Shown: positions 1-21,696, counted from the first letter of the stretch. The stretch is 24,604 nucleotides of DNA from a virus (IMGVR_UViG_3300025131_009348:1-24604), one strand, 5' to 3'. Notes: generated by a model from the letters alone, not told the origin. A program made the numbers and translations.

Positions 1-459
1 GGAAGGTTTAATTCCTGGAAGAATACCCTAACATTTTTCAAAAATAATGATTATGCATTCAAGTCTGAAGGCTATTGGATACTCTCAGATATTTATAATT
101 ATCTTTACCCTTACTACTACAAGATAAAATACTACGTTTTTGGAAGAGGACTTGGATTCTTCTCAGACTTTTATTACAGAGTTTTTGGAGGAGAGGCCAA
201 AATGAGGCAAGTTCATAATGAATTTCTTGAGTATAGTCTTGCTTTTGGATTAATCGGAGTCATCGCAGCTCTGTGGTTTTTTTGGTCACAGAGAAAGAAG
301 ATAATAGAAGGAGACAGGTTATTCCTTTATTCATTCCTAGTGTCTTTGGCCAATTCTTTTGGAAATTTTCCTTACCATATTGCAAGTACGTCCTTGGTCG
401 GAATCATGTCATTAAGCATGATCCTAAAAGGGAAGGAAGGAGAGACCTGTGGCGCATAA
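1..459 (+). CDS. O-antigen ligase (WaaL/Wzy_C)-family membrane protein, 5'-truncated
   Basis: Frame is open from base 1: GRFNSWKNT...YVFGRGLGFF...QVHNEFLEYSLAFGLIG followed by hydrophobic helices; matches the R-x-x-x-W / G-x-G-x-G / HN-x-x-L...G-x-x-G pattern of Wzy_C. Confidence 0.8.
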   Translation, partial: GRFNSWKNTLTFFKNNDYAFKSEGYWILSDIYNYLYPYYYKIKYYVFGRGLGFFSDFYYRVFGGEAKMRQVHNEFLEYSLAFGLIGVIAALWFFWSQRKKIIEGDRLFLYSFLVSLANSFGNFPYHIASTSLVGIMSLSMILKGKEGETCGA

Positions 460-1510
460 ATGGACTCAAAAGGCCCTAATTGACGATTGCTTGGCAGAGT
501 TGTGGTCTACATCCTCAGACGCTACTTTCTTGGCCAAAACAATAGGATTTATAGATAGGATCCAAGATGATTTAATCCAGGAGATTCCTATCCCTCATTA
601 TCAATTAACTTTAAAAAAACTACTTCCTACTGAGCAGCAAATTATAAATCTTTCTCCAGATAAACCTGCAGCTCCTACTGTGGCACTTGCTTCAGGAGGG
701 ACTCTCACTGATACGACTACGTATAAAGTCCTAGTGACTTTTGTAATTTTTGATGAGGATGGAAAAAGATATATTGAATCTGAGGCAGGGACAGAAAGCT
801 CCGAGCTGCTGGCCACATCTGCAAATAGGACTATCAGTGTGTCAGGTATTCCTTTGTATCCAGGAAATACTGGAGTAGCTCCAAAAACAATCTACAGGAG
901 AGTTTATATAGCTAAAAAAGAAAGTGGTGAGTCTTCCTTTGGAGAGTTTTTATTCGATCAAGAAATAGCAGATAATCTTACGAGTACTGCTATAATATCC
1001 TCTGAGGCTACATCCACAATAACTCCTCCAAGCGATACTGAAGTAGATGAGGTATCTAATGAACAGATGCTATGGTCTACTGGATCTGGATATTTGAGGA
1101 GGGTAGACAAGGACAGACTCAGGAGATTTTCTCCTGATACATCTCAATCAAGCGAGACTCCATTTGATTTCGATTTTGAAGGCATTGATTCTATCTATCT
1201 TTATCCTACTCTTGCTGCAAGCGCCACAAATGCTCAAAGGACTCTGATATACACAGTCCAGAGAAGACCTCATGAAGTTTTTTATGAGTCGAGCAGACTT
1301 ATGGATATGCCTATCTCATGGAAGACAGCACTAATAGCTGGAGTAAAATGGCTTGGATATGACCATAGAGATAGAGAGGGTTATAAATCCAGAGAGCTTA
1401 TTTATCAAGATTATAAGGAAAGACTTAAGAGAAAACATAGAAGGACAAGAGGTCGACCTTCCTCAGTCGTAGATATGGAAGGTGACGTTGACGGTTTTGA
1501 GGTACACTAA
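449..1510 (+). CDS. Putative head-tail adaptor (tail tubular protein A-like) with inserted Ig-like domain
   Basis: GTG start with GGAAGGAG RBS; position before nozzle; adaptor-like helical N-terminus and 'SIYLYP...MDMPISWKTALIAGV' C-terminus. Confidence 0.65.
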   Translation: MAHKWTQKALIDDCLAELWSTSSDATFLAKTIGFIDRIQDDLIQEIPIPHYQLTLKKLLPTEQQIINLSPDKPAAPTVALASGGTLTDTTTYKVLVTFVIFDEDGKRYIESEAGTESSELLATSANRTISVSGIPLYPGNTGVAPKTIYRRVYIAKKESGESSFGEFLFDQEIADNLTSTAIISSEATSTITPPSDTEVDEVSNEQMLWSTGSGYLRRVDKDRLRRFSPDTSQSSETPFDFDFEGIDSIYLYPTLAASATNAQRTLIYTVQRRPHEVFYESSRLMDMPISWKTALIAGVKWLGYDHRDREGYKSRELIYQDYKERLKRKHRRTRGRPSSVVDMEGDVDGFEVH

Positions 1511-3411
1511 TGCCTTTACTAAAGAGAGGATTAAATTCCTGGAGATTTTCGGACTTGCCTGTCTCGTACAAGGTAAATCCCAAAAACCGCTCTACAGACG
1601 CTAGGAATGTCCTTTCTAATCAAGGAGTCCTAGAGACTCGACCTGGATATACAAGATTTAATGATACGACTATAGAAGAGGGAAGGGATGTTACATCACT
1701 CTCTGCATTTAAGGACTTGTCAGACAATCTTTTGACAATTGCCAAAGTAAACACTTCTCTCTACAAAGTCCCGACATCGGGGGCATCTACTGCCATAAAG
1801 ACAGGGTTAACTGTCAGCAAAAAACATAGGGCCGTCACGTTTAGGGACAGGCATCTCATCGTAGTTGAGGGAGATGGCGTCTTTCAATGGGATGGGACTA
1901 CGTTTGGAGCATTAGGACAAGCTGGAGGCTCAGCTCCCACAGTAGGATCTTCAGGCGCAGGGAATACTCTCACAGCAGCAGACTATAAAGTAGCCTACAC
2001 CTTCCACTCTACTACTACAGGATTCGAATCTAATTTGTCGACTGCGAGCGCTTTGGTCACTGTGGCATCTGGAGAGCAGATAGATATATCTGGAATGGAT
2101 ACCTCAGTAGGAAATTTTACAATAGATAAAAAAAGGATATACCTCAAAGATATTACCAATAATTCTGCTTGGATATTTTGGGATGAGATAGACTTGGGGG
2201 ATGCCGCAGATACTATAGACGATGACCCTCTAAGCACTGATACCGCTCCGACCACTAACGGGACTCCTCCAGCAGATGCCAAATTTATAGTTACATTTGG
2301 GAAGTCTATTGCTTTGGCAGGAGTGAGCGCAAATCCTTCAGATGTTTTTATTAGCGAGCCATATATCCCAGATGCCTTTGACAACTCCAGGACATCAAAA
2401 ACCATTAAGGCCAGTGGGAAAGGGCCTGTGACTGGGTTAGGAGTAGGCTTTTACGATAATGACAATCTGAGGCCATTCCTCTGTATTTTTAAAAGGAATT
2501 CTGTAGAAGTTTATTCTGAGATTGGAGGAATAAAGGACTTGGGACCTGCATCTACCAGCATAGGTTGTATTGGCCATGACACGATTGTAGAGGAAGCAGG
2601 TATTGTAAAATTTATGAGCACTACTGGCTGGTATGAGATAGCTAATGGGCAGCTAAGAAAAAGGAAAGTTAAAGGGAGAGTCGTCCCTGCTGAGATAGCC
2701 GATGGAGATTTAATTGATATATTTACTAGGCCGGGATATGTCTACGAACTTAATAAGACAAATTATTCGAATTTCTTCAGTGTCTTCTTTCCAGGATTTA
2801 AAGGCAATTACATGACATTTATCTCTGAGGGAGTAAGTACTACCCTGAGTAAGTGCTATAATTATGAGTTTGATGTAGGGGGGTTTAGGCCTCTGGAATT
2901 TGCTCTTAACTTTTTTGATGCCGTCCATGCCGAGTTATCTACTGGAGAGGATGCTGTCCTTTTAGCAGGTGCTAACGGATTTATCTATAAGTACTCTATG
3001 GCAGAGGATAAGCATGATGTAGATATAGACAATGACTCAGTAGATATAGATGCCTTTTTTGATATGTTTTGGTTTACGGGGCAAGACTTTGAGTCATCTT
3101 ATAATTTTGGCTCCCATATAGTTAGGGCCGTAGAGGGAGATGACGACATCACAGTCAACGCCCACTTAGACTATGCCCAGAATACTTCTACTTCCTCCTC
3201 ATTTAGCAGGACAGCCGATGGTTTTCAGCTTGGCGTGTCAAAGCTTGACGAGGGAGTCCTTACAGATGGTCGAAGGGTAACTAGGAATATTTCAGAAATA
3301 TTGAGGACAGGACAATCTTTACTTTTAAAGTACAGTCAAAGCGCCACAGATGCTAATATGAGTTTAATAGAGGGGCAAGTCCATGTCTCAAAAAATGGAT
3401 GTCCTAATTAG
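1510..3411 (+). CDS. Putative tail nozzle / tail tubular protein B (P22 gp10-like stabilisation protein)
   Basis: 633 aa, beta-rich; N-terminal 'DARNVLSNQGVLETRPGY' typical of nozzle proteins; TAATG coupling to the adaptor. Confidence 0.7.
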   Translation: MPLLKRGLNSWRFSDLPVSYKVNPKNRSTDARNVLSNQGVLETRPGYTRFNDTTIEEGRDVTSLSAFKDLSDNLLTIAKVNTSLYKVPTSGASTAIKTGLTVSKKHRAVTFRDRHLIVVEGDGVFQWDGTTFGALGQAGGSAPTVGSSGAGNTLTAADYKVAYTFHSTTTGFESNLSTASALVTVASGEQIDISGMDTSVGNFTIDKKRIYLKDITNNSAWIFWDEIDLGDAADTIDDDPLSTDTAPTTNGTPPADAKFIVTFGKSIALAGVSANPSDVFISEPYIPDAFDNSRTSKTIKASGKGPVTGLGVGFYDNDNLRPFLCIFKRNSVEVYSEIGGIKDLGPASTSIGCIGHDTIVEEAGIVKFMSTTGWYEIANGQLRKRKVKGRVVPAEIADGDLIDIFTRPGYVYELNKTNYSNFFSVFFPGFKGNYMTFISEGVSTTLSKCYNYEFDVGGFRPLEFALNFFDAVHAELSTGEDAVLLAGANGFIYKYSMAEDKHDVDIDNDSVDIDAFFDMFWFTGQDFESSYNFGSHIVRAVEGDDDITVNAHLDYAQNTSTSSSFSRTADGFQLGVSKLDEGVLTDGRRVTRNISEILRTGQSLLLKYSQSATDANMSLIEGQVHVSKNGCPN

Positions 3412-3420
3412 GAGAAATGT

Positions 3421-4590
3421 ATGAGTCAACTAAAAACAAATATAATGCAGGGAATGGGCATACTCATCATGGGATTGCTTGCTCTTATATATAATAAGCC
3501 TGCCTACCCTGCTGCTTGCAGCACAATATCGAGAAATAACAATTCTGCTAACAGTATCCTTACCTCATCAAAATATAATACAGACGTGAATACAGTCTAT
3601 ACTGAAGTCAATAAGATTTATAATGGTAGCTGCACTCTCCCAACTGACTCCCTTCCTGTTATTACCAAGTCAGAATTGTCTGCGACAGATTTTCAAGCAT
3701 TATTCTACTCAGTCAAAGATGGATGTGAGGTCACATATGATTCTCCTTCTCAGGTGAATGTAGCTCCGTGTAGGTTAGCAGTTAATGGAGATTGGGTTAA
3801 TAAGACTGCAAGTAGCACAATTGGCTTTGGGGATGGAGGCAATAACCAAGTATCAGGAGAGATAGTCTCTCAGGTCTACTATGTCTATGCAAAGGATGGA
3901 TCCTCAGGGACAGGGCTTCACTTTGTAGTAGATGTCACAGCTCCATCGGTATCATTTGGAGAGTTAGCAACGAACGCTACTGGGTCGTTCCATAAAGCAC
4001 TAGGAAGCTTCTACAATGATAACAATTCAAATATCGCATCTAACTCTGTCCAGTCATGGGTTAATCATAAGTTTAACCCTGAAAGGAGTGCTGGTTTTTT
4101 TGGGAGTGTGAAATGGGAATCTACGACTAACTGTAGATGGGTAGGGACATCAACATCATACACTGATTATCCAGCAGACAGTGATTGTGATGATACAAAA
4201 AGGACAGTTAAAGGGATATACAATACAAGCGGCTATCAAGTAGGCCATGTTGACGGTAGACAGCCTCAAATTCTTTTCTCATTTATGCCAAAGGGACATT
4301 ATAGGATAGTTGGGAGGGGTCGGTTTTTGACAAATGCTCAGGCCACATGCAAATGGAGATTTTCAGATGGAACAAACAGCACTGTCACTCTAACTGCAGG
4401 AAAAGGTGGTGCAGCAGAAGATATAAACTTTGTCTATTTGGATGGATCTATAGATTATTTAGCAGATCAAACCAATGTTACATTAATAGTTCAGCACGAT
4501 AAAGTAGCAGGGACAGCATGTGACATATATTTGGCAGGGGACGCATCCGAACTTGAGATAGCAGTTTATTACTCTCCGTTTGCTTATTAG
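3421..4590 (+). CDS. Putative tail fibre/receptor-binding protein with N-terminal signal-peptide-like segment
   Basis: GGAG RBS; position after nozzle; Ser/Thr/Gly/Asn-rich; fibre-like 'YYVYA...TAP...LGSFYND' segment; hydrophobic N-terminus GILIMGLLALIY ending in PAYPAA. Confidence 0.6.
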   Translation: MSQLKTNIMQGMGILIMGLLALIYNKPAYPAACSTISRNNNSANSILTSSKYNTDVNTVYTEVNKIYNGSCTLPTDSLPVITKSELSATDFQALFYSVKDGCEVTYDSPSQVNVAPCRLAVNGDWVNKTASSTIGFGDGGNNQVSGEIVSQVYYVYAKDGSSGTGLHFVVDVTAPSVSFGELATNATGSFHKALGSFYNDNNSNIASNSVQSWVNHKFNPERSAGFFGSVKWESTTNCRWVGTSTSYTDYPADSDCDDTKRTVKGIYNTSGYQVGHVDGRQPQILFSFMPKGHYRIVGRGRFLTNAQATCKWRFSDGTNSTVTLTAGKGGAAEDINFVYLDGSIDYLADQTNVTLIVQHDKVAGTACDIYLAGDASELEIAVYYSPFAY

Positions 4591-4598
4591 GAGTATTT

Positions 4599-4964
4599 AT
4601 GAAAGTTTTACTAATTTTAATCTTCCCTACCCTTTTGCTGGCCATGCCTAAAGAGGAGTATCGTAGGAGAGTAGATAATATTTTCGAGATTCATAAAATC
4701 ATTATAGATAAAGACTTGAATGTCCCCGATGTCCAAAAATACAAAGACCGCATTGTAAATACCAAAGACTTGGCAACTCTCCAAATGCTTGAGGCAGAGG
4801 AACTAAAACTTCGTAATGAAGATAAAAATAAAAATCATATGGCAATCTGGAAGAAGAAGAGGAAAGCAAAAACTTTTTTAAAAAATCTTGATGTAGATGA
4901 GCTTTCAGACCCAGTAAAAAAGAAATTATTTTTTAAAGCTTTAATAAATCTTCTCAAGGAGTAG
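4599..4964 (+). CDS. Hypothetical exported protein in the tail-fibre-chaperone position
   Basis: GGAG RBS; MKVLLILIFPTLLLA signal peptide; charged helical body. Confidence 0.6.
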   Translation: MKVLLILIFPTLLLAMPKEEYRRRVDNIFEIHKIIIDKDLNVPDVQKYKDRIVNTKDLATLQMLEAEELKLRNEDKNKNHMAIWKKKRKAKTFLKNLDVDELSDPVKKKLFFKALINLLKE

Positions 4965-4967
4965 GAC

Positions 4968-5609
4968 ATGGGACTATTTAGAGGTTCTCCAGCAGATGTG
5001 CTTTTTGGTAAAAAACAGGCCCCGACAGGTACTCGGACCATCCCTTTCTCCAAACAAGAGCTATTTGAAATATCGGCTCGGCAAGGAGCTTTGGCAGGTT
5101 TAGATAAATCCCTAAGACCAGACATAGAAGGTAAAAGTCTTGAGCCAGATGTTGAGGCATTTAGAGGCGCTCTCTTTGGCCAAGTAAAAGGAAGAGAGAG
5201 AGAAGAGACTAGAGCAGCTAGAGGCTTATTTGGAGATCAAAGTAGACGACTCCGAGATATAATCGCTCAAAGAGGGCTAGGGACATCTGCAGTCGGGATA
5301 AGTCAGCAATTGGGCATAGACAAAGACTTAAGCGAAAATTTGGCCAATATTAGGGCCAGATCAAGAAGCCAGCTATTCCAGCTCCCACTTGCTCTAATAA
5401 GAGAAAGAGAAAGGTTAACTGCTGGGAGAAGAAAGAGACTGGCCGATTTTGCTCAATTAACTAAAGTTAGAAGACCACAGCAAGTAGCAACTCAAAGACC
5501 TAGTAGAGAAGGAGGACTATTTGATATAGCGATACCTTCAGCTAGGACAGTAGCTTTATTTGCTGGAAGTGGTGGCGCAAAAGCCGCTACAGGTGGGGCA
5601 GGAGGTTAG
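4968..5609 (+). CDS. Putative DNA ejection/pilot protein
   Basis: Helical, Gln/Arg/Ala-rich, 'AQRGLGTSAVG' motif, Gly-rich C-terminus; position after tail genes. Confidence 0.55.
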   Translation: MGLFRGSPADVLFGKKQAPTGTRTIPFSKQELFEISARQGALAGLDKSLRPDIEGKSLEPDVEAFRGALFGQVKGREREETRAARGLFGDQSRRLRDIIAQRGLGTSAVGISQQLGIDKDLSENLANIRARSRSQLFQLPLALIRERERLTAGRRKRLADFAQLTKVRRPQQVATQRPSREGGLFDIAIPSARTVALFAGSGGAKAATGGAGG

Positions 5610-5610
5610 T

Positions 5611-6696
5611 ATGCCAAGTACAGTCGATAGAATAGTAGCAGGACTCAATGCTTTCAATAGAGATATTGAGAGGCTCCAAAGAGAGAGGAAAGAGGAGCGT
5701 AGGCTTGGTTTAGCTGAGACTGAAGCAAAAGAAAAGAAAACTGCAAGACAAAGAGCACTCGAGGTCTCTTTGGCCAAAGAGGGAGCTACTCCTGAGGAGA
5801 TATCTCAATTTACTGGAGCTGAAATACCAGGGACAGTTAGTCCTTTGCTTGGAGGTATATCAAAAAGAAAACAGGAAGAGACTGCTGGGAAAAAATTATT
5901 ACAAGCCGCTCAATTAGCAAAGGCCAAGAGAAAAGACTCTCCTGCTAAAGCAGGTAAGTTAGGCCTTACTCCAGGTCAAGAAGCATTAGATAAAGCATTT
6001 GCTAAAGATTTGGCAGAATTTGAGGCAGGAGGAGGGAGTGCAGATGTGGCCAAAGGTCTTTCTCAGCTCCAAGAAGCAAAAACTGCCTTAGAGACTACTC
6101 CTGGATTGACTGGAGTAGATCAAGGATTTGTCCAGTCGATTCCATTTGTAGGACCTGGAATTAGGAAAGCCTTTAGCCCTGAGTCAGTTAATGTCCAGCA
6201 ATCAATTGAAGAAGTCGTACAGAGAAATTTAAGACTCGTACTAGGCGCTCAGTTTACTGAGAAGGAAGGAGAGAGATTAATTGCAAGAGCATTTGATGAG
6301 ACTCTCCCTCAAGATATTAATGCTAGAAGGGTAGAGAGATTGATGACCCAGATACAAAATGCTGCTGAAGCCAAGCAAGCAGCAGCAGATTACTTTAGAG
6401 ACAATGGGACATTAAGAGGATTCCAAGGAAAGATTTTTGGGATTAAAGACTTCCAAGATGCAGTAGCAGATGAGGGGCCGGGATTTGATACTACCCAATT
6501 CCAGGCAAAAATTCCTGGAGTAGATATTCAAAACATCCAAGCAGCTCCTCCATTACAAGACCAAATTATTCCATCTGCTCAAGCAGGAGGACAGCAAATA
6601 CCATTAGCTCCAGGAGTAAACATTACTGACCCTGTACGTACACAGCAACGTAGACAAAGGATACTGGAGCTTCAAAGGAAAGCAGGAGGGATATAG
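5611..6696 (+). CDS. Putative internal virion/ejection protein
   Basis: ATG at 5611 follows GGAGG (5601-5605), a better start than 5560; helical Ala/Gln/Glu-rich; 'LGAQFTEKEGERL' segment. Confidence 0.6.
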   Translation: MPSTVDRIVAGLNAFNRDIERLQRERKEERRLGLAETEAKEKKTARQRALEVSLAKEGATPEEISQFTGAEIPGTVSPLLGGISKRKQEETAGKKLLQAAQLAKAKRKDSPAKAGKLGLTPGQEALDKAFAKDLAEFEAGGGSADVAKGLSQLQEAKTALETTPGLTGVDQGFVQSIPFVGPGIRKAFSPESVNVQQSIEEVVQRNLRLVLGAQFTEKEGERLIARAFDETLPQDINARRVERLMTQIQNAAEAKQAAADYFRDNGTLRGFQGKIFGIKDFQDAVADEGPGFDTTQFQAKIPGVDIQNIQAAPPLQDQIIPSAQAGGQQIPLAPGVNITDPVRTQQRRQRILELQRKAGGI

Positions 6697-6697
6697 G

Positions 6698-8722
6698 ATG
6701 CCGCTAAATGAAGCAGAGCAAATCGAACTCCAGCAATTGCAAGAAGAAGAGGCCCAGGCCATACAGGCTCAAGGGCAAGAGGCGCAATCAGGACTTACTC
6801 CCGAGGAAGACTTTGAACTTCAGTCTTTACTTCAAGAGGAGCAGCAAGCTCAAACACAATTATCTCAAGCACAACCCGAACCTGCGCAAGAGGACCCATT
6901 AGCTCAATTTTCTGGGAATCCAGAGGCAGAGTTAGGTCCTCTTAATAGGCTTCAATTCTCTATCGAGCCTTTGGAGTCAAATAGGAGAGCATTTCTCATT
7001 AAAAAATTTGGAGTAGAGAATGTCCTTAGAGATGAGTCAGGGAATCTTTTTCTTCAGCAGTCAGGACAAATTAGACCACTAAATCAAGCAGGCTTCTCTC
7101 AGGCAGATATGGCCGAATTTTTGGGAGCAATTCCAGAGATAGTCGGAGCAGGGATAGGGATGGCAGCAGGCACTCCTGGAGGGATTCCCACTATGTTGGC
7201 TGGAGGAGCGGCTGGAGGAGTAGCTGGAGCAGCAGCAAGACAAGTCGTGAGCGGTCTTTTGACTGAAGTCCCTCAAGTGGATTTGCTGGATCCGTCTTCT
7301 GGAGAAAGAGCAGGAAATCTCTTATTGAGTGCTGGGCTCGGAGCATTTGGAGGGGCCATAGGAGCTGCTTCTAAGCAATTAGTCCAGGGAGTAGGTAAAT
7401 TTATTGGCCCAAAGATAACCAAGAGAGCTGCTGAGCTGACCACTCAAGCCGATGAGTTTGGTATCAAGCCTACTATTGGCCAGAAGTTTGGAGGCATAAT
7501 AGAGAGACAAGAGAAGATATTAGAGAAGATACCTTTCTTTGGACGCAAAGTGAGAAAAGAAATCTCTGAGCAGAGCAAGAAAATATATGAGACTCTCAAG
7601 CAAGAGATTGGAGATTTTACAGGCATTGATAGAGTAGGGCCTGAAGTAGGGGCCGGGCTTAAGAAAGTAGTCACGTCAAAGATAGAGTCTATTAAAATGG
7701 GAGCCAGAGAGTTATTTGAGGACTTTGCTGAAAGAGGGAAGGATACCATCCTCAAAACTAACCAAGTCAAAAACAGCTTCCTCAATCGAATCGAGAAGTT
7801 TGGAGTTTATGATACTAAGGGACAGCCAGTCCCATTTAGTCCTAAGACAGCAGGACTTGAGCAATCTGAGTATAACGCAATCAGAAAAGTCTTAGACCCT
7901 ATAATGGAGGATTTGAAAGAGACTCAGGTTAATGCCGTGGGACTCAATAATATTAGGAAAAGTTTAGATAAGGCCATCACTGTATTTCAGACAGAGGGAA
8001 GGGTAGCAGGAGTCAGTGACGTTGCGATGCTTAAGATAAGATCCTCCTTTATGGATTCAGTCGAGAATGCCCTGGAGAAAAGAGGAGATGAGCTACTCCT
8101 CCAATTTAAGACGGCCAGGCAGATGTGGGCAGAGGCCATGAAGAATACCAAGTTAGCAGATGACTTAGGAGTCAATCTTGTCAATACGAAGAAAGTTTTG
8201 GCAGATGAGAAGGTATTGAGGAGAGTTATATTAGACTCAAAAAATTACGAGAAAGTCGTAGAATTGGTAGGAAAAGAGGATGCTGCTCAATTGGCAATAA
8301 AGGCCTTAGAGGACACGGCCAGAGTGACTGCTGGAGCAGGAGACCAATTCTCAGCAGCTAAGATTCTCACATTCCTAAATAAAAATAATGAAGTTTATAA
8401 AAGGGCCTTTGGAAAAGAAAAGGTCAATAAGCTGGCAGGTCTCCTGGATTTCGCTAAGCAGAATCATGTCCCAGTAAATCCATCCATGACAGAGGTAACT
8501 CGACTCCAGGAAATGAATCTCAGGACATTAGGGACAGGAATCACTTTAGGGACTTTCAGGGCATTACTTGAAGGGGCCTTAAAAATGCCTGCCAAAATAG
8601 GGACAGGCGCTCGAGCATTAATTCAGACAAGAGGACAGGAGCCAAAAAGAAGACTGTCATTCCCATCTGAAGAAGAGGAAGAAAAACCCAAAAAGGGTCT
8701 AAATATAAATAAGAGAAAATAA
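6698..8722 (+). CDS. Putative large internal virion/ejection protein
   Basis: 674 aa; Gly/Ala-rich hydrophobic stretches (GAGIGMAAG, GGAAGGVAGAAA), acidic Gln-rich N-terminus with an L-x-x-x-E-x-x-EL repeat; last gene before lysis region. Confidence 0.6.
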   Translation: MPLNEAEQIELQQLQEEEAQAIQAQGQEAQSGLTPEEDFELQSLLQEEQQAQTQLSQAQPEPAQEDPLAQFSGNPEAELGPLNRLQFSIEPLESNRRAFLIKKFGVENVLRDESGNLFLQQSGQIRPLNQAGFSQADMAEFLGAIPEIVGAGIGMAAGTPGGIPTMLAGGAAGGVAGAAARQVVSGLLTEVPQVDLLDPSSGERAGNLLLSAGLGAFGGAIGAASKQLVQGVGKFIGPKITKRAAELTTQADEFGIKPTIGQKFGGIIERQEKILEKIPFFGRKVRKEISEQSKKIYETLKQEIGDFTGIDRVGPEVGAGLKKVVTSKIESIKMGARELFEDFAERGKDTILKTNQVKNSFLNRIEKFGVYDTKGQPVPFSPKTAGLEQSEYNAIRKVLDPIMEDLKETQVNAVGLNNIRKSLDKAITVFQTEGRVAGVSDVAMLKIRSSFMDSVENALEKRGDELLLQFKTARQMWAEAMKNTKLADDLGVNLVNTKKVLADEKVLRRVILDSKNYEKVVELVGKEDAAQLAIKALEDTARVTAGAGDQFSAAKILTFLNKNNEVYKRAFGKEKVNKLAGLLDFAKQNHVPVNPSMTEVTRLQEMNLRTLGTGITLGTFRALLEGALKMPAKIGTGARALIQTRGQEPKRRLSFPSEEEEEKPKKGLNINKRK

Positions 8723-8874
8723 TGGATATCTCAGTTAAGATGGCCATAGAAATAGTAGAGAGGATAGGCTTTCCCATCTTAATCTGTATGTGGTTTATGT
8801 TCCGCAATGAGAAGAAGCAAAATAAGATATTAGAGATATTGGATGATATCTCTTCTCATTTGGAGGGAGAATAA
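8722..8874 (+). CDS. YvrJ-like small membrane protein, candidate holin (50 aa; below ORF-track cutoff)
   Basis: MDISVKMAIEIVERIGFPILICMWFMFRNEKKQNKILEILDDISSHLEGE; GFPI + TM + coiled tail; TAATG overlaps on both sides. Confidence 0.7.
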   Translation: MDISVKMAIEIVERIGFPILICMWFMFRNEKKQNKILEILDDISSHLEGE

Positions 8875-9002: not shown

Positions 9003-9569
9003 ATGGTAAATTTAATTCAAAAGCAGACAATGGTCTGTAAAGAGACTTACGAAGTAGCGGTACTTTTCAAGGATGTAATGGATTCCATTACAGATGCCTT
9101 GAAAGACGGGAAGTTTGAGGCTCATGAAATCCCTAAGCCAATCGTGGCGGCCATGGGTAGACTTGATGCTGCTGTAAAAGACATCAAGGGAGTAGGGGCA
9201 GAATTCCAGGAGCATTCAGCTCTTGCTGTAAATTCCCTGACAGCTCCCCTTCTAGAAGCTGCTGACAATCTTATTCGAGTGCTAACTGGAAAAGAGGCCG
9301 TAGACGAGACTCTTTCTCTGGCCGCTGCAGATGCAGGCCTTGGGGCAGCAAAAAACGCCCCGACAGAAGGGCCAGCAGAGGTGCACTCTCTAGCTGCTTC
9401 TGCAGGACTTGGCACTGTGAAGGAAGTTGAGAAGCCTCAAAAGAAGAAAAAGAAAGCTGGTAAGAAAGTGGCAAAATCGAAAAAGAAGGGCAAGAAAAAA
9501 GCAGCTAAAAAGAAGGTAGCAAAAGCTGGAAAAAAGAAGAAAAAAGCCAAGAAAAGAAAAGTAGCTTAA
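9003..9569 (+). CDS. Hypothetical protein with histone-H1-like Lys/Ala-rich C-terminal tail
   Basis: Amphipathic helical N-terminus; C-terminal ~45 aa mostly K/A/G/V; internal SLAA-(x)-x-AGLG repeat. Confidence 0.8.
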   Translation: MVNLIQKQTMVCKETYEVAVLFKDVMDSITDALKDGKFEAHEIPKPIVAAMGRLDAAVKDIKGVGAEFQEHSALAVNSLTAPLLEAADNLIRVLTGKEAVDETLSLAAADAGLGAAKNAPTEGPAEVHSLAASAGLGTVKEVEKPQKKKKKAGKKVAKSKKKGKKKAAKKKVAKAGKKKKKAKKRKVA

Positions 9570-9574
9570 TTAAA

Positions 9575-9988
9575 GTGGCAGGTATTGAGAGCTTCCAGAT
9601 TATCGCTAAACCAGAGGTAAATCTGGAAGATTTCTTCCAGCTCAATGCCTGCCTCTATGCTGTCTACATTGCTGTAGTCAACTATGCTGAAGAAAATAGT
9701 CTCCCAATATGTATTACTTCCATTGCAACTGACTTAGTCAAAAATAGGACATCTTGGACTCATGTAGAGTTTAGGGGGATGGACTTATCTATAGAGGGAT
9801 GGAGTGAGCTGCATATTAACAGAGTATGCTTCCATATAAACGATAGATTTAAGGAATGGAAGACAGGAAAACTCGGGAAAAAGAAGGAGTGGACAGTGAT
9901 AAAGTGCCATAAGGCAAAGAATGGTAAGCGTCATTTACATTTGCAGGTAAATAGACTTTCCAGTCTTAGCCCTGGTATAATATATTAA
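9575..9988 (+). CDS. Endolysin, peptidase M15 (Hedgehog/DD-peptidase fold)
   Basis: 'ITS' then S-x-x-H-x6-D (SWTHVEFRGMD) and C-terminal H-x-H (RHLHLQV) zinc ligands; lysis-region position; GTG start. Confidence 0.75.
   Translation: MAGIESFQIIAKPEVNLEDFFQLNACLYAVYIAVVNYAEENSLPICITSIATDLVKNRTSWTHVEFRGMDLSIEGWSELHINRVCFHINDRFKEWKTGKLGKKKEWTVIKCHKAKNGKRHLHLQVNRLSSLSPGIIY
9952..9981 (+). promoter_or_regulatory. Candidate sigma70 promoter (TAGACT-N18-TATAAT with extended TG)
   Basis: TAGACT 9952-9957, TG 9973-9974, TATAAT 9976-9981; predicted TSS near 9988. Confidence 0.6.
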
Positions 9989-10434: not shown

Positions 10435-10888
10435 CAATCACGACCATCCCTTGTACTCAACCTGGATGTCTATGAGAAATAGATGCAGTAATCCTAATAA
10501 CTCAAGGTATGAAGATTGGGGAGGTAGAGGGATTAAGGTATGTAAAAGATGGGATGACTTCTCACTATTTGCAAAAGATATGGGAGAAAGACCTGAAGGC
10601 TGTACTCTTGATAGGATAGATAATTCAGGGGACTATACTCCTGAGAATTGTAAGTGGTCTACTTTTTCGGAGCAGTCAAATAATAAGCGAATTTTAGTTA
10701 CAAATAAGTCTGGATACAATGGGGTCTGTTTTGTAAAAAAAAGTAGGAATTGGAATGCAAGAATCACAATTGAAGGTATTAGATATGAGATTGGCAGATT
10801 CGAGTCAGCCTTGTATGCTTATCTTCAATATTGCAAAGTATATCTTGAATGGTATGGATACTATCCAAAGGAATACAAATGGGCATGA
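10424..10888 (+). CDS. HNH endonuclease with C-terminal AP2 domain
   Basis: YSTWMSMRNRC...GGRGIKVC.RW...TLDRIDNSGDYTPENCKW...EQSNN, then NKSGYNGV...WNARITIEG...IGRF; start 10424 or 10409. Confidence 0.9.
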   Translation: MKINNHDHPLYSTWMSMRNRCSNPNNSRYEDWGGRGIKVCKRWDDFSLFAKDMGERPEGCTLDRIDNSGDYTPENCKWSTFSEQSNNKRILVTNKSGYNGVCFVKKSRNWNARITIEGIRYEIGRFESALYAYLQYCKVYLEWYGYYPKEYKWA

Positions 10889-11178
10889 TTACTAGAATTT
10901 TTTTTATGTTATATCTTGTTTTTGCTGTATCTTGCGCTCACTCTTCAGGGGCCAAGCCTCCTTACAAAGATTTCCCAAATAGATCTATAGAGCAATCTCT
11001 TTGGAAATTTAAGGATGAGACTACCCTTCTTAAGAAGAAATGCCGTCACTGGAAAAGGGATAATACATGCCGAAAAAAAGACCAATATTTTGTAGAAATC
11101 CCTGTCAGTAAAGCTGCAGGACTTGATATGTACGTAATCGACCTCCAAACCCTAATCTATTTTCTAGATCAAATTTAA
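10879..11178 (+). CDS. Lipoprotein, candidate outer-membrane spanin
   Basis: AAGGA RBS before ATG 10879; hydrophobic stretch with lipobox AVSC; end of lysis region. Confidence 0.6.
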   Translation: MGMITRIFFMLYLVFAVSCAHSSGAKPPYKDFPNRSIEQSLWKFKDETTLLKKKCRHWKRDNTCRKKDQYFVEIPVSKAAGLDMYVIDLQTLIYFLDQI

Positions 11179-11800: not shown

Positions 11801-12969
11801 TGATAAAACTTCATAATGATTATTCTTGGAATGTCTTAAAGGAAATGAAAAAAAATTCCATTGACTCTATAGTAACTGACCCTCCTTATGGTTTAGGCTT
11901 TATGGGTAAGTCGTGGGATAAAGTCCTCCCTCCTCTTGAGGTATGGGAGGAATGTTATCGAGTGCTCAAGCCTGGAGGATTTCTTGTGGCCATGAGTGCA
12001 TCCAGGACATTCCATAGATTATCAGTACAAGTAGAGGACTTAGGATTTATTGTGCATCCTATGGTCGGCTGGATTTATGGCTCAGGATTTCCAAAGGCCA
12101 CAGACTTGTCTAAACAATTTGATAAGCAGGCAGGAGCCAAAAGAAAAGTAATAGGTAAAAAGGAATCTGGATGTTTTAGCTTAAAGGAGGAGTCTCGTCA
12201 TACGATCGGAGCAAGCATTGCCAAGGAGGTTGATATCACTGTTCCATCAACCTCCTTGGCAAAAAAATGGGACGGCTGGAAATATGGATTACAGGCACTC
12301 AAGCCAGCTCTCGAGCCTATAGGAGTATTTCAAAAACCTCCATTGTCCCCAATGACTAAAAATGTAAAAAAGTATGGAGTGGGAGCAATGAATATTGATG
12401 AGTGCAGAGTCAGTACCGATGGGAAAGATAAAGAGAGACATTTAAGAGAGTGGGATAGAGTCCAGTCTAAGCAAAAAAAAGAAGGAATGTTCGAAAAATT
12501 GGGTGAGATTGATTTAAATGATTATGTAAAAGATTATGTAAAAGATGGAAGGCATCCTGCTAACTTAATTCATGACGGCTGTATGGCAGGAGAGAATTTT
12601 AGATATTTTAATGCTACTCCTTTCTTGTATTGCCCTAAGCCCAGCAAGAATGAGAGGAATAAGGGATTAGATTTTTTTGACCTTAAGGAATCTAATTACG
12701 GTAAAAACTTTTCTGGATCCGATAAAGGTACAATAAGTAATTCCAAGCATCCTAATCAAAATAGTCATCCCACAGTCAAGCCGATTAAATTGATGGAATG
12801 GTTAATTAAATTAGTGACTCCTCCAGAAGGGATTGTATTGGACCCATTTTTAGGGTCAGGGACTACTGGAATAGCAGCTAAGCAGAATAGATACTCTTTT
12901 ATCGGTATAGAGAAAGATAAAGATTACTTTAAAATTGCTGAGGGAAGGATAAGCTCAATCCTTATTTAG
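11800..12969 (+). CDS. DNA N6-adenine/N4-cytosine methyltransferase (beta class)
   Basis: IVTDPPY catalytic motif near the N-terminus; HPTVKP and VLDPFLGSGTTG SAM-binding motif near the C-terminus. Confidence 0.95.
   Translation: MIKLHNDYSWNVLKEMKKNSIDSIVTDPPYGLGFMGKSWDKVLPPLEVWEECYRVLKPGGFLVAMSASRTFHRLSVQVEDLGFIVHPMVGWIYGSGFPKATDLSKQFDKQAGAKRKVIGKKESGCFSLKEESRHTIGASIAKEVDITVPSTSLAKKWDGWKYGLQALKPALEPIGVFQKPPLSPMTKNVKKYGVGAMNIDECRVSTDGKDKERHLREWDRVQSKQKKEGMFEKLGEIDLNDYVKDYVKDGRHPANLIHDGCMAGENFRYFNATPFLYCPKPSKNERNKGLDFFDLKESNYGKNFSGSDKGTISNSKHPNQNSHPTVKPIKLMEWLIKLVTPPEGIVLDPFLGSGTTGIAAKQNRYSFIGIEKDKDYFKIAEGRISSILI
12520..12546 (+). repeat. In-frame 12-bp tandem duplication (GATTATGTAAAA x2 + GAT; DYVKDYVKD)
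   Basis: Read directly from sequence. Confidence 0.9.
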
Positions 12970-13348
12970 TCACATCCCCAAAAGTAATATTATTGTTATT
13001 GGTAAAGTTAGCAGGCTTTCTGTTATCCTCTGCCTTTCTTAGGGATACATCCTCAGTAGGTCCAAAAGCAGTCACTCTCCCATCTTTGAATTTGACAGCA
13101 TACCAAACCTCTTTACGGTCAAAGAGAGTCAATCCAAAGGTGATAACATGGACCATAATATGATTCTCTTTAGGGACAGACATTCCGTAATTGTAGAGAA
13201 TGTATGGAGAGTCAGCAGATGTACTGTCTGGGTCTCCCAGCCTCTCAGTTACCTGGTCTTTGGTCATGCCTAAACTAATTTTATTTAGGTCTTTAGGGGT
13301 AGAGGCGCATGATACTGCCAGAAATAAAGATAAAATCAATACTTTCAT
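12962..13348 (-). CDS. BamE/SmpA-OmlA-like outer-membrane lipoprotein
   Basis: MKVLILSLFLAVSC lipobox; ISLGMTKDQV...LGDP motif; VKFKDGRV strand; GGAGGA RBS; the only credible minus-strand gene. Confidence 0.8.
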   Translation of the reverse strand: MKVLILSLFLAVSCASTPKDLNKISLGMTKDQVTERLGDPDSTSADSPYILYNYGMSVPKENHIMVHVITFGLTLFDRKEVWYAVKFKDGRVTAFGPTEDVSLRKAEDNRKPANFTNNNNITFGDVTK

Positions 13349-18545: not shown

Positions 18546-18669
18546 TGAAAATGTAATGCAGGCCTGGATTCTTCTGGGCCTCTTAATTTTAATATATACA
18601 TTCCATAATCTTAAACGTAATATTTTCCAGAATGACAAATCAAACCCTTTTGGAGGCCGCAATGATTAA
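18538..18669 (+). CDS. Small single-TM protein (43 aa)
   Basis: MTDENVMQAWILLGLLILIYTFHNLKRNIFQNDKSNPFGGRND; fills the gap and overlaps both neighbours. Confidence 0.55.
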   Translation: MTDENVMQAWILLGLLILIYTFHNLKRNIFQNDKSNPFGGRND

Positions 18670-19123
18670 CAGCTTAGTCAGTATTATTTCTATCCTATTC
18701 CTAGTCTTAGCTCTAGGAGGATGCGCTTCTAAAGCTAAACAAGTTGACATGGAGAATATTGGTATGGAAAAGAAGCTCAAAGAAGATCCCGAGACAATTG
18801 GAATGATATTCTTCTCTACAGGAGATTCTGAAGTCCATGAAAGATTCATATACACGCTAAGGAATGCCATTGATGCTGCGAAAGCTAACCCACATGTAAT
18901 TATCAGTTTGGTCGGACATAGTGATGCTAGAGGAGATACTCCTCTCAATTATAAGCTATCAGAAGACAGAGCAGTAAGCGTAAGGGGAAAACTCATGAAC
19001 ATGGGCCTAGAATCCCACAGGATTGAAATTAACAGCATAGGCAACGCTATTCCACTAGATCCAGGTCAAGGACATTCTCCATGGGCAAGGAATAGGAGAG
19101 TAGATATCAGGATCAAGTACTAA
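18662..19123 (+). CDS. OmpA-family (Pal-like) peptidoglycan-binding lipoprotein
   Basis: GGAGG RBS before ATG 18662; lipobox LGGC; GHSDARG...N..LS..RA..V and NRRVDI motifs. Confidence 0.92.
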   Translation: MINSLVSIISILFLVLALGGCASKAKQVDMENIGMEKKLKEDPETIGMIFFSTGDSEVHERFIYTLRNAIDAAKANPHVIISLVGHSDARGDTPLNYKLSEDRAVSVRGKLMNMGLESHRIEINSIGNAIPLDPGQGHSPWARNRRVDIRIKY

Positions 19124-21378: not shown

Positions 21379-21696
21379 ATGAAAAAATTAATCTTTATTT
21401 TATTAGCATTTGCTTTTGCCTTACCTCAGGCCCATTCCACTCTTACCAAGGATACTGTCTCAATTGCTGTCACAGCAGAGGCAGATGTAGATTCTACTGC
21501 TGCTGAAGAGTCTATAAATATCCTAGACCAGGATACTTTGATTACCTCAGTAGCATTCACTTCTGGAGGGACGACAGTGACTCTTACAAATGCTGCAAAT
21601 GTCGTCACTATTTCAGACGGGTCTAATTCGACTACGATAGCCGATACCAATTTTACAGGTATAGCTGCCACGGTAATAGCCTATCTCGCACTATAG
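21379..21696 (+). CDS. Small secreted Thr/Ala-rich beta protein
   Basis: MKKLIFILLAFAFALPQAHS signal peptide; GGGGAG RBS. Confidence 0.8.
   Translation: MKKLIFILLAFAFALPQAHSTLTKDTVSIAVTAEADVDSTAAEESINILDQDTLITSVAFTSGGTTVTLTNAANVVTISDGSNSTTIADTNFTGIAATVIAYLAL

Follow-up and report, generated by a model that had tools for sequence, protein, structure and literature searches.

Leader-bearing tail fibre and capsid cement proteins predicted in a marine podophage: a possible periplasmic step in virion assembly

To our knowledge, assembly of tailed phages is regarded as an entirely cytoplasmic process. Why, then, does a gene in the tail-fibre position of a phage begin with what reads as a Sec-type signal peptide? 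We addressed this question in a viral window, by which we mean the whole stretch of 24,604 nucleotides that was analysed. A first-pass annotation had proposed that the fibre and its neighbour are exported, oxidatively folded, perhaps glycosylated by a WaaL-like enzyme of the same operon, and attached to particles at or after lysis. Taken as a whole, that interpretation was partly supported: the leaders and the cysteine pairs held, and the enzyme was found to follow a different protein.

Genome setting of the fibre gene

The window is part of the genome of a short-tailed phage (podophage) of ~35 kb. A longer record (G001; 40,127 bases) holds the same sequence, and the last 127 bases of the window recur at its start, which gives this unit length. 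The sequencing runs containing the window were marine, and no RNA run was listed among the holders of the window stretch. From leader style and GC content, our impression is of a host among the Bdellovibrionota. Located 5' of the window are, in order, genes for terminase, a P22-like portal, scaffold, an SU10-like capsid protein, a 196-aa protein, and a 405-aa membrane protein. Pfam matches to SU10_MCP, P22_portal, and SU10_adaptor were obtained, and the closest cultured relatives by capsid were Myxococcus phages Mx9 and Mx8 (25-27%), with a similar gene order. The order portal, scaffold, capsid, cement, adaptor, nozzle, fibre, and ejection genes is shared with phages of the SU10, P22, and Mx8 type, which have adaptor-docked trimeric fibres (PMC9509320). 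The present locus differs from them in the leaders and paired cysteines on fibre and cement and in the WaaL-like gene within the operon.

All structural genes of the window lie on the + strand. The 3' part of the gene for the 405-aa protein, a WaaL/O-oligosaccharyltransferase-like polytopic membrane protein, occupies positions 1..459, where the gene ends; in the record L001 of this phage the entire gene spans 5822-7039. It is followed by a leaderless tail adaptor like SU10 gp11 and T7 gp11 (449..1510; Pfam SU10_adaptor, E 7.9e-5, below cut-off), the presumed fibre docking site, and by a leaderless tail nozzle (1510..3411) assigned by position, size, PHROG 511, and a profile match to 8jov chain A (E 0.001). 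After the fibre gene and its partner come three leaderless genes for internal virion (ejection) proteins (4968..8722; assigned by position, the largest matching PHROG 342 internal virion protein) and a holin-like gene (8722..8874; PHROG 4898 holin, E 2.4e-4). From motif readings with no family match, we take 9575-9988 to be a candidate endolysin and 10879-11178 a lipoprotein with a spanin label. Together with the holin-like gene, these suggest ordinary lysis, which would mix the periplasm with the cytoplasm.

Several other features were observed in this phage and its relatives. A 188-aa protein 3' of the holin (9003-9569) has a Lys/Ala-rich, histone-H1-like tail, and its N-terminal part is homologous in many relatives. 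A leader-bearing protein of 105 aa is encoded at 21379-21696, with a weak match to NCBIfam BLB8/JUQZ-1 below cut-off. In L022, also from this phage, two leader-bearing proteins are encoded 3' of the terminase gene, one of 272 aa (2343-3161; PHROG 8198, listed as unknown) and one of 113 aa with 4 Cys (3172-3513). A GNAT acetyltransferase gene between the fibre and ejection genes (L003 11062-11397, as Mx8 p53) occurs in many relatives and is absent here. A promoter scan gave hits at chance level only.

Domains, leader, and cysteines of the fibre

The fibre gene (3421-4590) encodes 389 aa and is preceded by an AGGAG ribosome-binding site with 6-nt spacing to the ATG. Pfam, PHROG, and PDB sequence searches with the fibre itself were without match, as was the comparison of its anchor sequence with solved fibres. 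We describe it from a monomer structure model (59 sequences; mean pLDDT 69, low at residues 233-271), for which the best Foldseek matches were phage receptor-binding proteins and fibres. Directly after the leader lies a segment that had been read as anchor-like; it is conserved, with L47, N53, and other residues invariant, and corresponds to residues 32-71 (3514..3633), modelled as an extended strand followed by a helix at 49-68. Residues 91-224 (3691..4092) form a beta-sandwich shoulder resembling the middle domain of BPP-1 Mtd (1yu0 residues 50-188; Z 9.5, rmsd 2.5, 104 aligned), the match ending at 224. PF21916 was indicated for this domain by Atlas features on the fibre (0.92) and by Pfam on the relative L021. 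The head, residues 221-389 (4081..4590), is an exchangeable C1q/TNF-like jelly roll that matched 6z6v, 9h38, and 1wck at Z 9.8 and the tip of Bdellovibrio Bd2734 (8okw) at Z 8.8. Such a head is likely receptor-binding and, together with the Mtd-like domain of the monomer model, points to a trimer-forming adhesin fold. The fibre lacks the C-type lectin head of Mtd, having the C1q/TNF fold in its place; the anchor and leader here are also the fibre's own.

The head type is common to few relatives. Among relatives the anchor is retained while the remainder is exchanged; one of them has a Collar domain and three match PHROG 24210 tail fibre. A conserved N-terminus with swapped heads is the usual tail-fibre pattern (PMC10386132), and fibres of this kind dock on two adaptor subunits in SU10 (PMC9509320). 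The tail operon of this phage showed no second candidate for a fibre. The earlier description of the protein as fibre-like was thus upheld by structure matches, slot, conserved anchor, and variable heads, and the gene 3' of the nozzle is predicted to encode the podophage tail fibre or receptor-binding protein.

Exported fibre-like adhesins are already known in Bdellovibrio, as MAT fibres (PMC10769870). They share with the present fibre a signal peptide, a mosaic trimeric adhesin architecture, and a TNF-like disulfide tip (8okw, Foldseek E 1.3e-4). MATs are chromosomal cell-surface adhesins with a beta-rich N-domain of ~130 aa (PMC10769870), whereas the present gene lies in a phage tail operon and its product has a 40-residue helical anchor.

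The leader (residues 1-31; 3421..3513) contains Lys5 and the hydrophobic core GILIMGLLALIY, followed by NKPAYPAAC, and the best 11-residue Kyte-Doolittle mean of the core is 2.87. The Lys-containing n-region and hydrophobic core first proposed are present, and the h-region is uninterrupted. The proposed PAYPA-A cleavage site is atypical, with Pro at -1 if cleavage is at the family-homologous position and Tyr at -3 for the alternative Y-P-A|A-C. Among 112 leader-bearing family members, 109 have a canonical small-x-small site 1-4 residues before the Cys, and this fibre is one of three atypical ones. The unusual letters are real, since window positions 3450-3628 were reproduced without any difference in run X9. 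As for a true start downstream of the hydrophobic segment, extra Met residues occur at 9, 12, and 17, and no conserved start codon was found between the hydrophobic core and the anchor. A lipoprotein (SPase II) reading was also tried and rejected: in 67 of 112 members the residue before the Cys is Thr, a polar c-region intervenes, and this Cys covaries with another one.

Conservation of the leader was assessed with a hydrophobicity heuristic rather than SignalP. A first homologue search returned 3 proteins, in each of which the leader ends just before the conserved Cys. Wide searches yielded 116 proteins with the anchor near the start, after two anchor-less repeat proteins were dropped, and a hydrophobic leader lies directly 5' of the invariant first Cys in 112 of them. 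The same loci provided controls, with a hydrophobic N-terminus in 0/34 nozzles and 0/31 adaptors, and the leaders are therefore not due to chance. By this heuristic, then, the signal is conserved in homologues, a check suggested in the first-pass annotation. The four exceptions comprise one mis-called start (L078 shows a longer leader), one borderline case, and two proteins starting inside the c-region. Leaders were short and unconserved in sequence, and conservation begins exactly at the predicted mature end. The fibre gene lies between the nozzle and ejection genes in all relatives, and a leader-bearing fibre follows 33 of 34 distinct nozzles (loci retrieved via fibre or nozzle).

An even number of cysteines is a mark of disulfide-bonded exported proteins. 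In the mature fibre, Cys occupies 8 positions (33, 71, 102, 117, 238, 256, 310, and 367), and mature Cys counts are even in 104/116 fibres versus 15/34 nozzles and 17/31 adaptors, 14 of the latter being Cys-less; these sequences are related and not independent. C33 and C71, the predicted disulfide clamp of the anchor, covary, and the single discordant row is probably this protein's own Cys71, placed one column off. C102 and C117, in the shoulder, are both present in 56 of 59 rows and both absent in 3. For the CxxC pair the corresponding counts are 54 and 5, and neither pair has a discordant row. The head pairs C238-C256 and C310-C367 covary in 4 proteins. The proposal of four plausible pairs thus gained covariation support for each. 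Paired cysteines alone are no proof of export, because disulfides of phage tails can form spontaneously in air (PMC13576161).

One fibre, in L046, has the same anchor (E 1.9e-12) and the same slot, no leader (an in-frame stop lies 15 nt upstream), and neither anchor Cys. In a quick tree, L046 was nested among leader-bearing phages (SH-aLRT 99 with L049), and no close relatives of it were found; it is a single record, 63% complete, and the sole leaderless fibre control. Judged from its sequence, L046 shows joint loss of leader and disulfide while the protein stays in the fibre slot. Since it is leaderless, in the same slot, and nested among leader-bearing phages, a cytoplasmic origin is compatible with this anchor, which is what one would expect if the protein belongs to the virion.

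A parallel was found in a cultured phage. Mx8 p64 and the Mx9 putative tail fibre, which are 98% identical, have a leader before a podophage fibre anchor, as here. Their anchor belongs to a different family, its profile match to the present anchor not being significant, and phages BUCT555 and ppBjS10J-1 encode leaderless homologues of it. The structural region of Mx8 that was examined contains neither a WaaL-like gene nor one for an exported cement. Leader-bearing fibre-like and Cys-rich proteins are encoded there at L071 28744-31330 (Mx8 p64, p66, and p67). Mx8 p64 is a parallel, not a proven homologue, and a cultured test case for the export step.

The partner gene (4599-4964), an open reading frame as earlier described, encodes a helical protein of 121 aa without Cys, predicted to be exported. 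Its signal peptide was confirmed by the same heuristic (Lys2, core 2.97, 15-residue leader), and its cleavage site, L-L-A|M, is only partly canonical. The claim that it occupies the fibre-chaperone position was sustained as to location, directly 3' of the fibre and with a leader, but the gene is not obligatory: a leader-bearing small gene stands at this position in 9 of 30 assessable relatives. The proteins of this slot differ in their N-terminal parts and end in a long helix and a short helical hairpin. Tfa chaperones have a comparable layout, a small gene after the fibre with a variable N-domain and a helical C-terminus (PMC9608196). Pfam, PHROG, Atlas, and fold searches with the partner gave no match, and a profile search brought up 6 short proteins, none of them assigned to a family. 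The one clear homologue (L002, 34%) accompanies the same head type, and partner similarity correlates weakly with head similarity (rho 0.29, p 0.035, n=10 loci; nozzle control not significant), which linkage would also explain. We regard the partner as a candidate, optional Tfa-like fibre chaperone, with even odds.

The capsid cement protein and its enzyme slot

The 196-aa protein encoded after the capsid gene (L001 5232-5822, outside the window and directly 5' of the WaaL-like gene) was modelled with a lambda gpD-like beta-tulip fold, with Z 13.6 to 8qsy, 11.4 to 9ocb, and 10.7 to phi29 gp8.5. Fold and gene position after the capsid gene identify it, on the model, as a beta-tulip capsid cement; a weak PF09956 match was seen on the cement of L005. 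The cements of HFTV1, Sf11, TW1, and Pam3 and phi29 gp8.5 have the same fold (Z 10-13.6) and the same post-capsid position, whereas the cement here differs from lambda gpD-like beta-tulip cements in its leader and two covarying Cys pairs. In Mx8 and Mx9 the cement slot is filled by p49 and p82, respectively, which, unlike the present protein, have neither leader nor Cys, and the comparison gave no support for homology to Mx8 p49.

Among cement homologues, 40 with a leader have a mean of 4.2 Cys with two covarying pairs, versus a mean of 1.1 in 9 leaderless ones from distant phages. From these sequences, the cement is likely exported in the same manner as the fibre and would be a second exported virion part. 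Leader and Cys are gained or lost together, as far as sequences tell, in both protein families, and the predicted export is toggled gene by gene among outer virion parts, with none seen on adaptor or nozzle. The cement of this phage has, unlike its relatives, a 26-residue insert after the leader with a second A-x-A-like site (LPSAKA) at its end. Terminator-like hairpins lie 3' of the capsid gene (L001 5146-5167) and early in the WaaL-like gene (5853-5879), and may step down expression; the one between the capsid and cement genes is odd for a stoichiometric cement and counts against our best reading.

The neighbouring membrane protein was placed in the WaaL/O-OTase (GT-C) class on its sequence: the family is polytopic, Pfam Wzy_C was detected in 12 of 12 members tested (3 above the curated cut-off), and an alignment to WaaL 7TPG (E 0.072) places the invariant R255 and H325 at the Arg and His stretch of that protein. 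An H-N/S-E/D/S motif is present in 26 of 32 WaaL-like proteins. O-linking OTases have the WaaL fold and work in the periplasm (PMC12800693). Wzy_C, many membrane helices, and conserved Arg and His are shared with WaaL ligases and with the OTases PglL, PglS, and TfpO (PMC12800693), from which the present enzyme differs in being phage-encoded, within a virion operon, 350-415 aa long, and linked by gene context to a capsid protein. The Wzy_C domain itself is silent on the acceptor.

We compared the distributions of these genes, because the enzyme had been thought to serve the exported fibre. Leader-bearing fibres without a WaaL-like gene occur in L018, L019, L063, and L027, and also in L167 and L169. 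Genome-wide checks bore out the absence: records G002, G003, and G006, which are 96-100% complete, have leader-bearing fibres and no such gene (a 12.6-bit fragment in G002 was put down to chance). Cement, too, is missing from the whole of G002 and G003. Conversely, the enzyme is kept beside the leaderless fibre of L046. The expected co-occurrence of leader and enzyme thus failed in both directions, and the claim that the enzyme serves the fibre was rejected. It tracks the exported cement instead. Of 34 nozzle/fibre-defined rows, 32 were assessable, with cement and WaaL in 28, neither in 3, cement only in 1, and WaaL only in 0; in an overlapping capsid-defined set (30 assessable of 33 in-clade rows), the corresponding counts were 25, 4, 1, and 0. 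This distribution, in which the WaaL-like gene never occurs without cement, is suggestive and no proof, because adjacent genes can be lost together. An apparent stepwise loss was observed in the close relatives L167 and L169, which have cement without WaaL and a 75-aa hydrophobic remnant only.

The occupant of the slot is itself exchanged. In L122, L123, L125, and L126, the slot before a ~90-aa gene holds a soluble enzyme, with PF01973 in the two scanned; this family also includes MptE kinases. PF01973 is the Maf flagellin glycosyltransferase domain, cytoplasmic and using CMP-sugars (bioRxiv 10.1101/2020.06.03.131540). The neighbouring 90-aa gene, which is homologous (HH probability 97%), supports the synteny of the slot. 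A leaderless cement-like gene lies beside the enzyme in L122, L123, and L125, and its product gave a weak profile match to the exported cement (HH probability 26%, E 7e-4); L126 has the Maf-type gene and no cement gene before it. The head-operon Maf-type genes are located at L123 9456-10700, L125 5210-6277, and L126 8956-10158, and these phages are candidates for cytoplasmic virion glycosylation with nonulosonic acids. The slot swap is stronger evidence than the co-occurrence counts. We lean slightly towards a slot for cement glycosylation with the enzyme matched to the compartment, Maf-type for leaderless and WaaL-type for exported cement; taken by itself, LPS remodelling by the WaaL-like enzyme seems rather unlikely. 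In the ~90-aa operon gene, which is absent from this phage and leaderless in most relatives, a clear leader was seen in 3 of 28, apparently gained at L017 6820-7161, L056 7462-7794, and L108 8383-8709.

Proposed assembly route and alternatives

Starting from features observed in the sequences and models (slots, folds, leaders, paired and covarying cysteines, and leaders that come and go together with Cys), we propose that fibre and cement are exported via Sec, folded in the periplasm with disulfides, and bound to particles at lysis, with a probability of roughly 0.7. Both proteins would pass through Sec and be cleaved by signal peptidase, their cysteines would be oxidized by the host Dsb system, and the fibre would trimerize in the periplasm, where help from the 121-aa partner in some phages is an open bet. 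Holin, endolysin, and spanins would then merge the compartments, such that at or after lysis the 40-residue anchor could dock on the adaptor and the cement on the capsid of a particle whose head and tail are finished. Lambda gpD, T4 Soc, and the fibres of T4 and T7 can join finished particles in vitro. Somewhat favoured as a further step, the WaaL-like enzyme would place an undecaprenyl-linked host glycan on the exported cement, not on the fibre, giving a sugar-coated head. The likely benefit would be that the phage could draw on disulfide-stabilized adhesin folds and on glycans of the periplasmic pool. A more elaborate picture, a two-compartment particle with cytoplasmic head and tail core, periplasmic fibre and OTase-glycosylated cement joined at lysis, and a compartment-matched enzyme cassette, is offered tentatively and is short of an even chance.

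Three other explanations bear on the same observations. The leader might be an uncleaved or slowly cleaved membrane anchor that tethers fibres to the periplasmic face of the inner membrane until lysis. This phage in particular would suit such a reading, with its confirmed letters placing Pro at -1 of the family site and Tyr at -3 of the alternative one, but the canonical sites in 109 of 112 relatives, and leaders that are short and unconserved up to the predicted mature end, make it improbable. Doubtful to a similar degree is the idea that fibre and cement are not virion parts and serve as secreted adhesins or decoys masking the receptor, the WaaL-like enzyme altering LPS in the manner of serotype-converting phages. 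Bacterial surface adhesins with signal peptides and TNF-like tips are indeed known, namely the Bdellovibrio MAT fibres (PMC10769870), to which the 8okw match points, Wzy_C leaves the acceptor unspecified, and the phage has other envelope genes, for BamE-like (12962-13348, - strand) and OmpA/Pal-like (18632-19123, + strand) lipoproteins, possible exclusion or envelope factors. Against these stand the lack of a second fibre candidate in the tail operon, the nozzle/ejection slot kept in all relatives, a capsid-cement fold with no evident periplasmic role, leaderless versions in the same slots, and a WaaL-like gene never kept without cement. The receptor-blocking alternative raised in the first-pass annotation is accordingly unlikely, given the fibre slot and the exported cement.

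Least probable of all is that the working fibre is cytoplasmic, translated from an internal start or consisting of molecules left unexported, with an incidental leader and disulfides acquired from air after lysis. L046 shows a cytoplasmic anchor to be possible, oxidation by air has been discussed for cysteines of virions (PMC13576161), and the Met residues within the leader could serve as starts. However, no start codon is conserved between core and anchor, a useless leader would not persist in 112 of 116 diverged proteins, and leader and Cys are co-gained and co-lost in two protein families.

Precedent for export of virion proteins comes from filamentous phages, whose coat proteins pIII and pVIII carry signal peptides and form disulfides in the periplasm; such phages are put together at the membrane while being extruded, whereas the present one is a portal-tail phage with a holin. 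In the literature searched, which covered few subscription papers, no description of tailed phages with exported fibres or cement was found, and the parts consulted of a phi24B preprint and a Klebsiella dsbA screen (PMC13412088) describe no exported virion parts. The parts described here have known folds, and it is the assembly route that would be new. The locus also supplies natural controls, in the joint loss of leader and Cys and in the enzyme swap within one slot. If the proposed export and attachment are true, the periplasm would be a second assembly compartment for tailed phages, infectivity would depend on host Sec and Dsb, and the disulfide-rich adhesin folds common to phage fibres and Bdellovibrio surface fibres would be explained. 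They would also open a new route of virion glycosylation with host envelope glycans, which may provide camouflage, stability, or defence against grazing.
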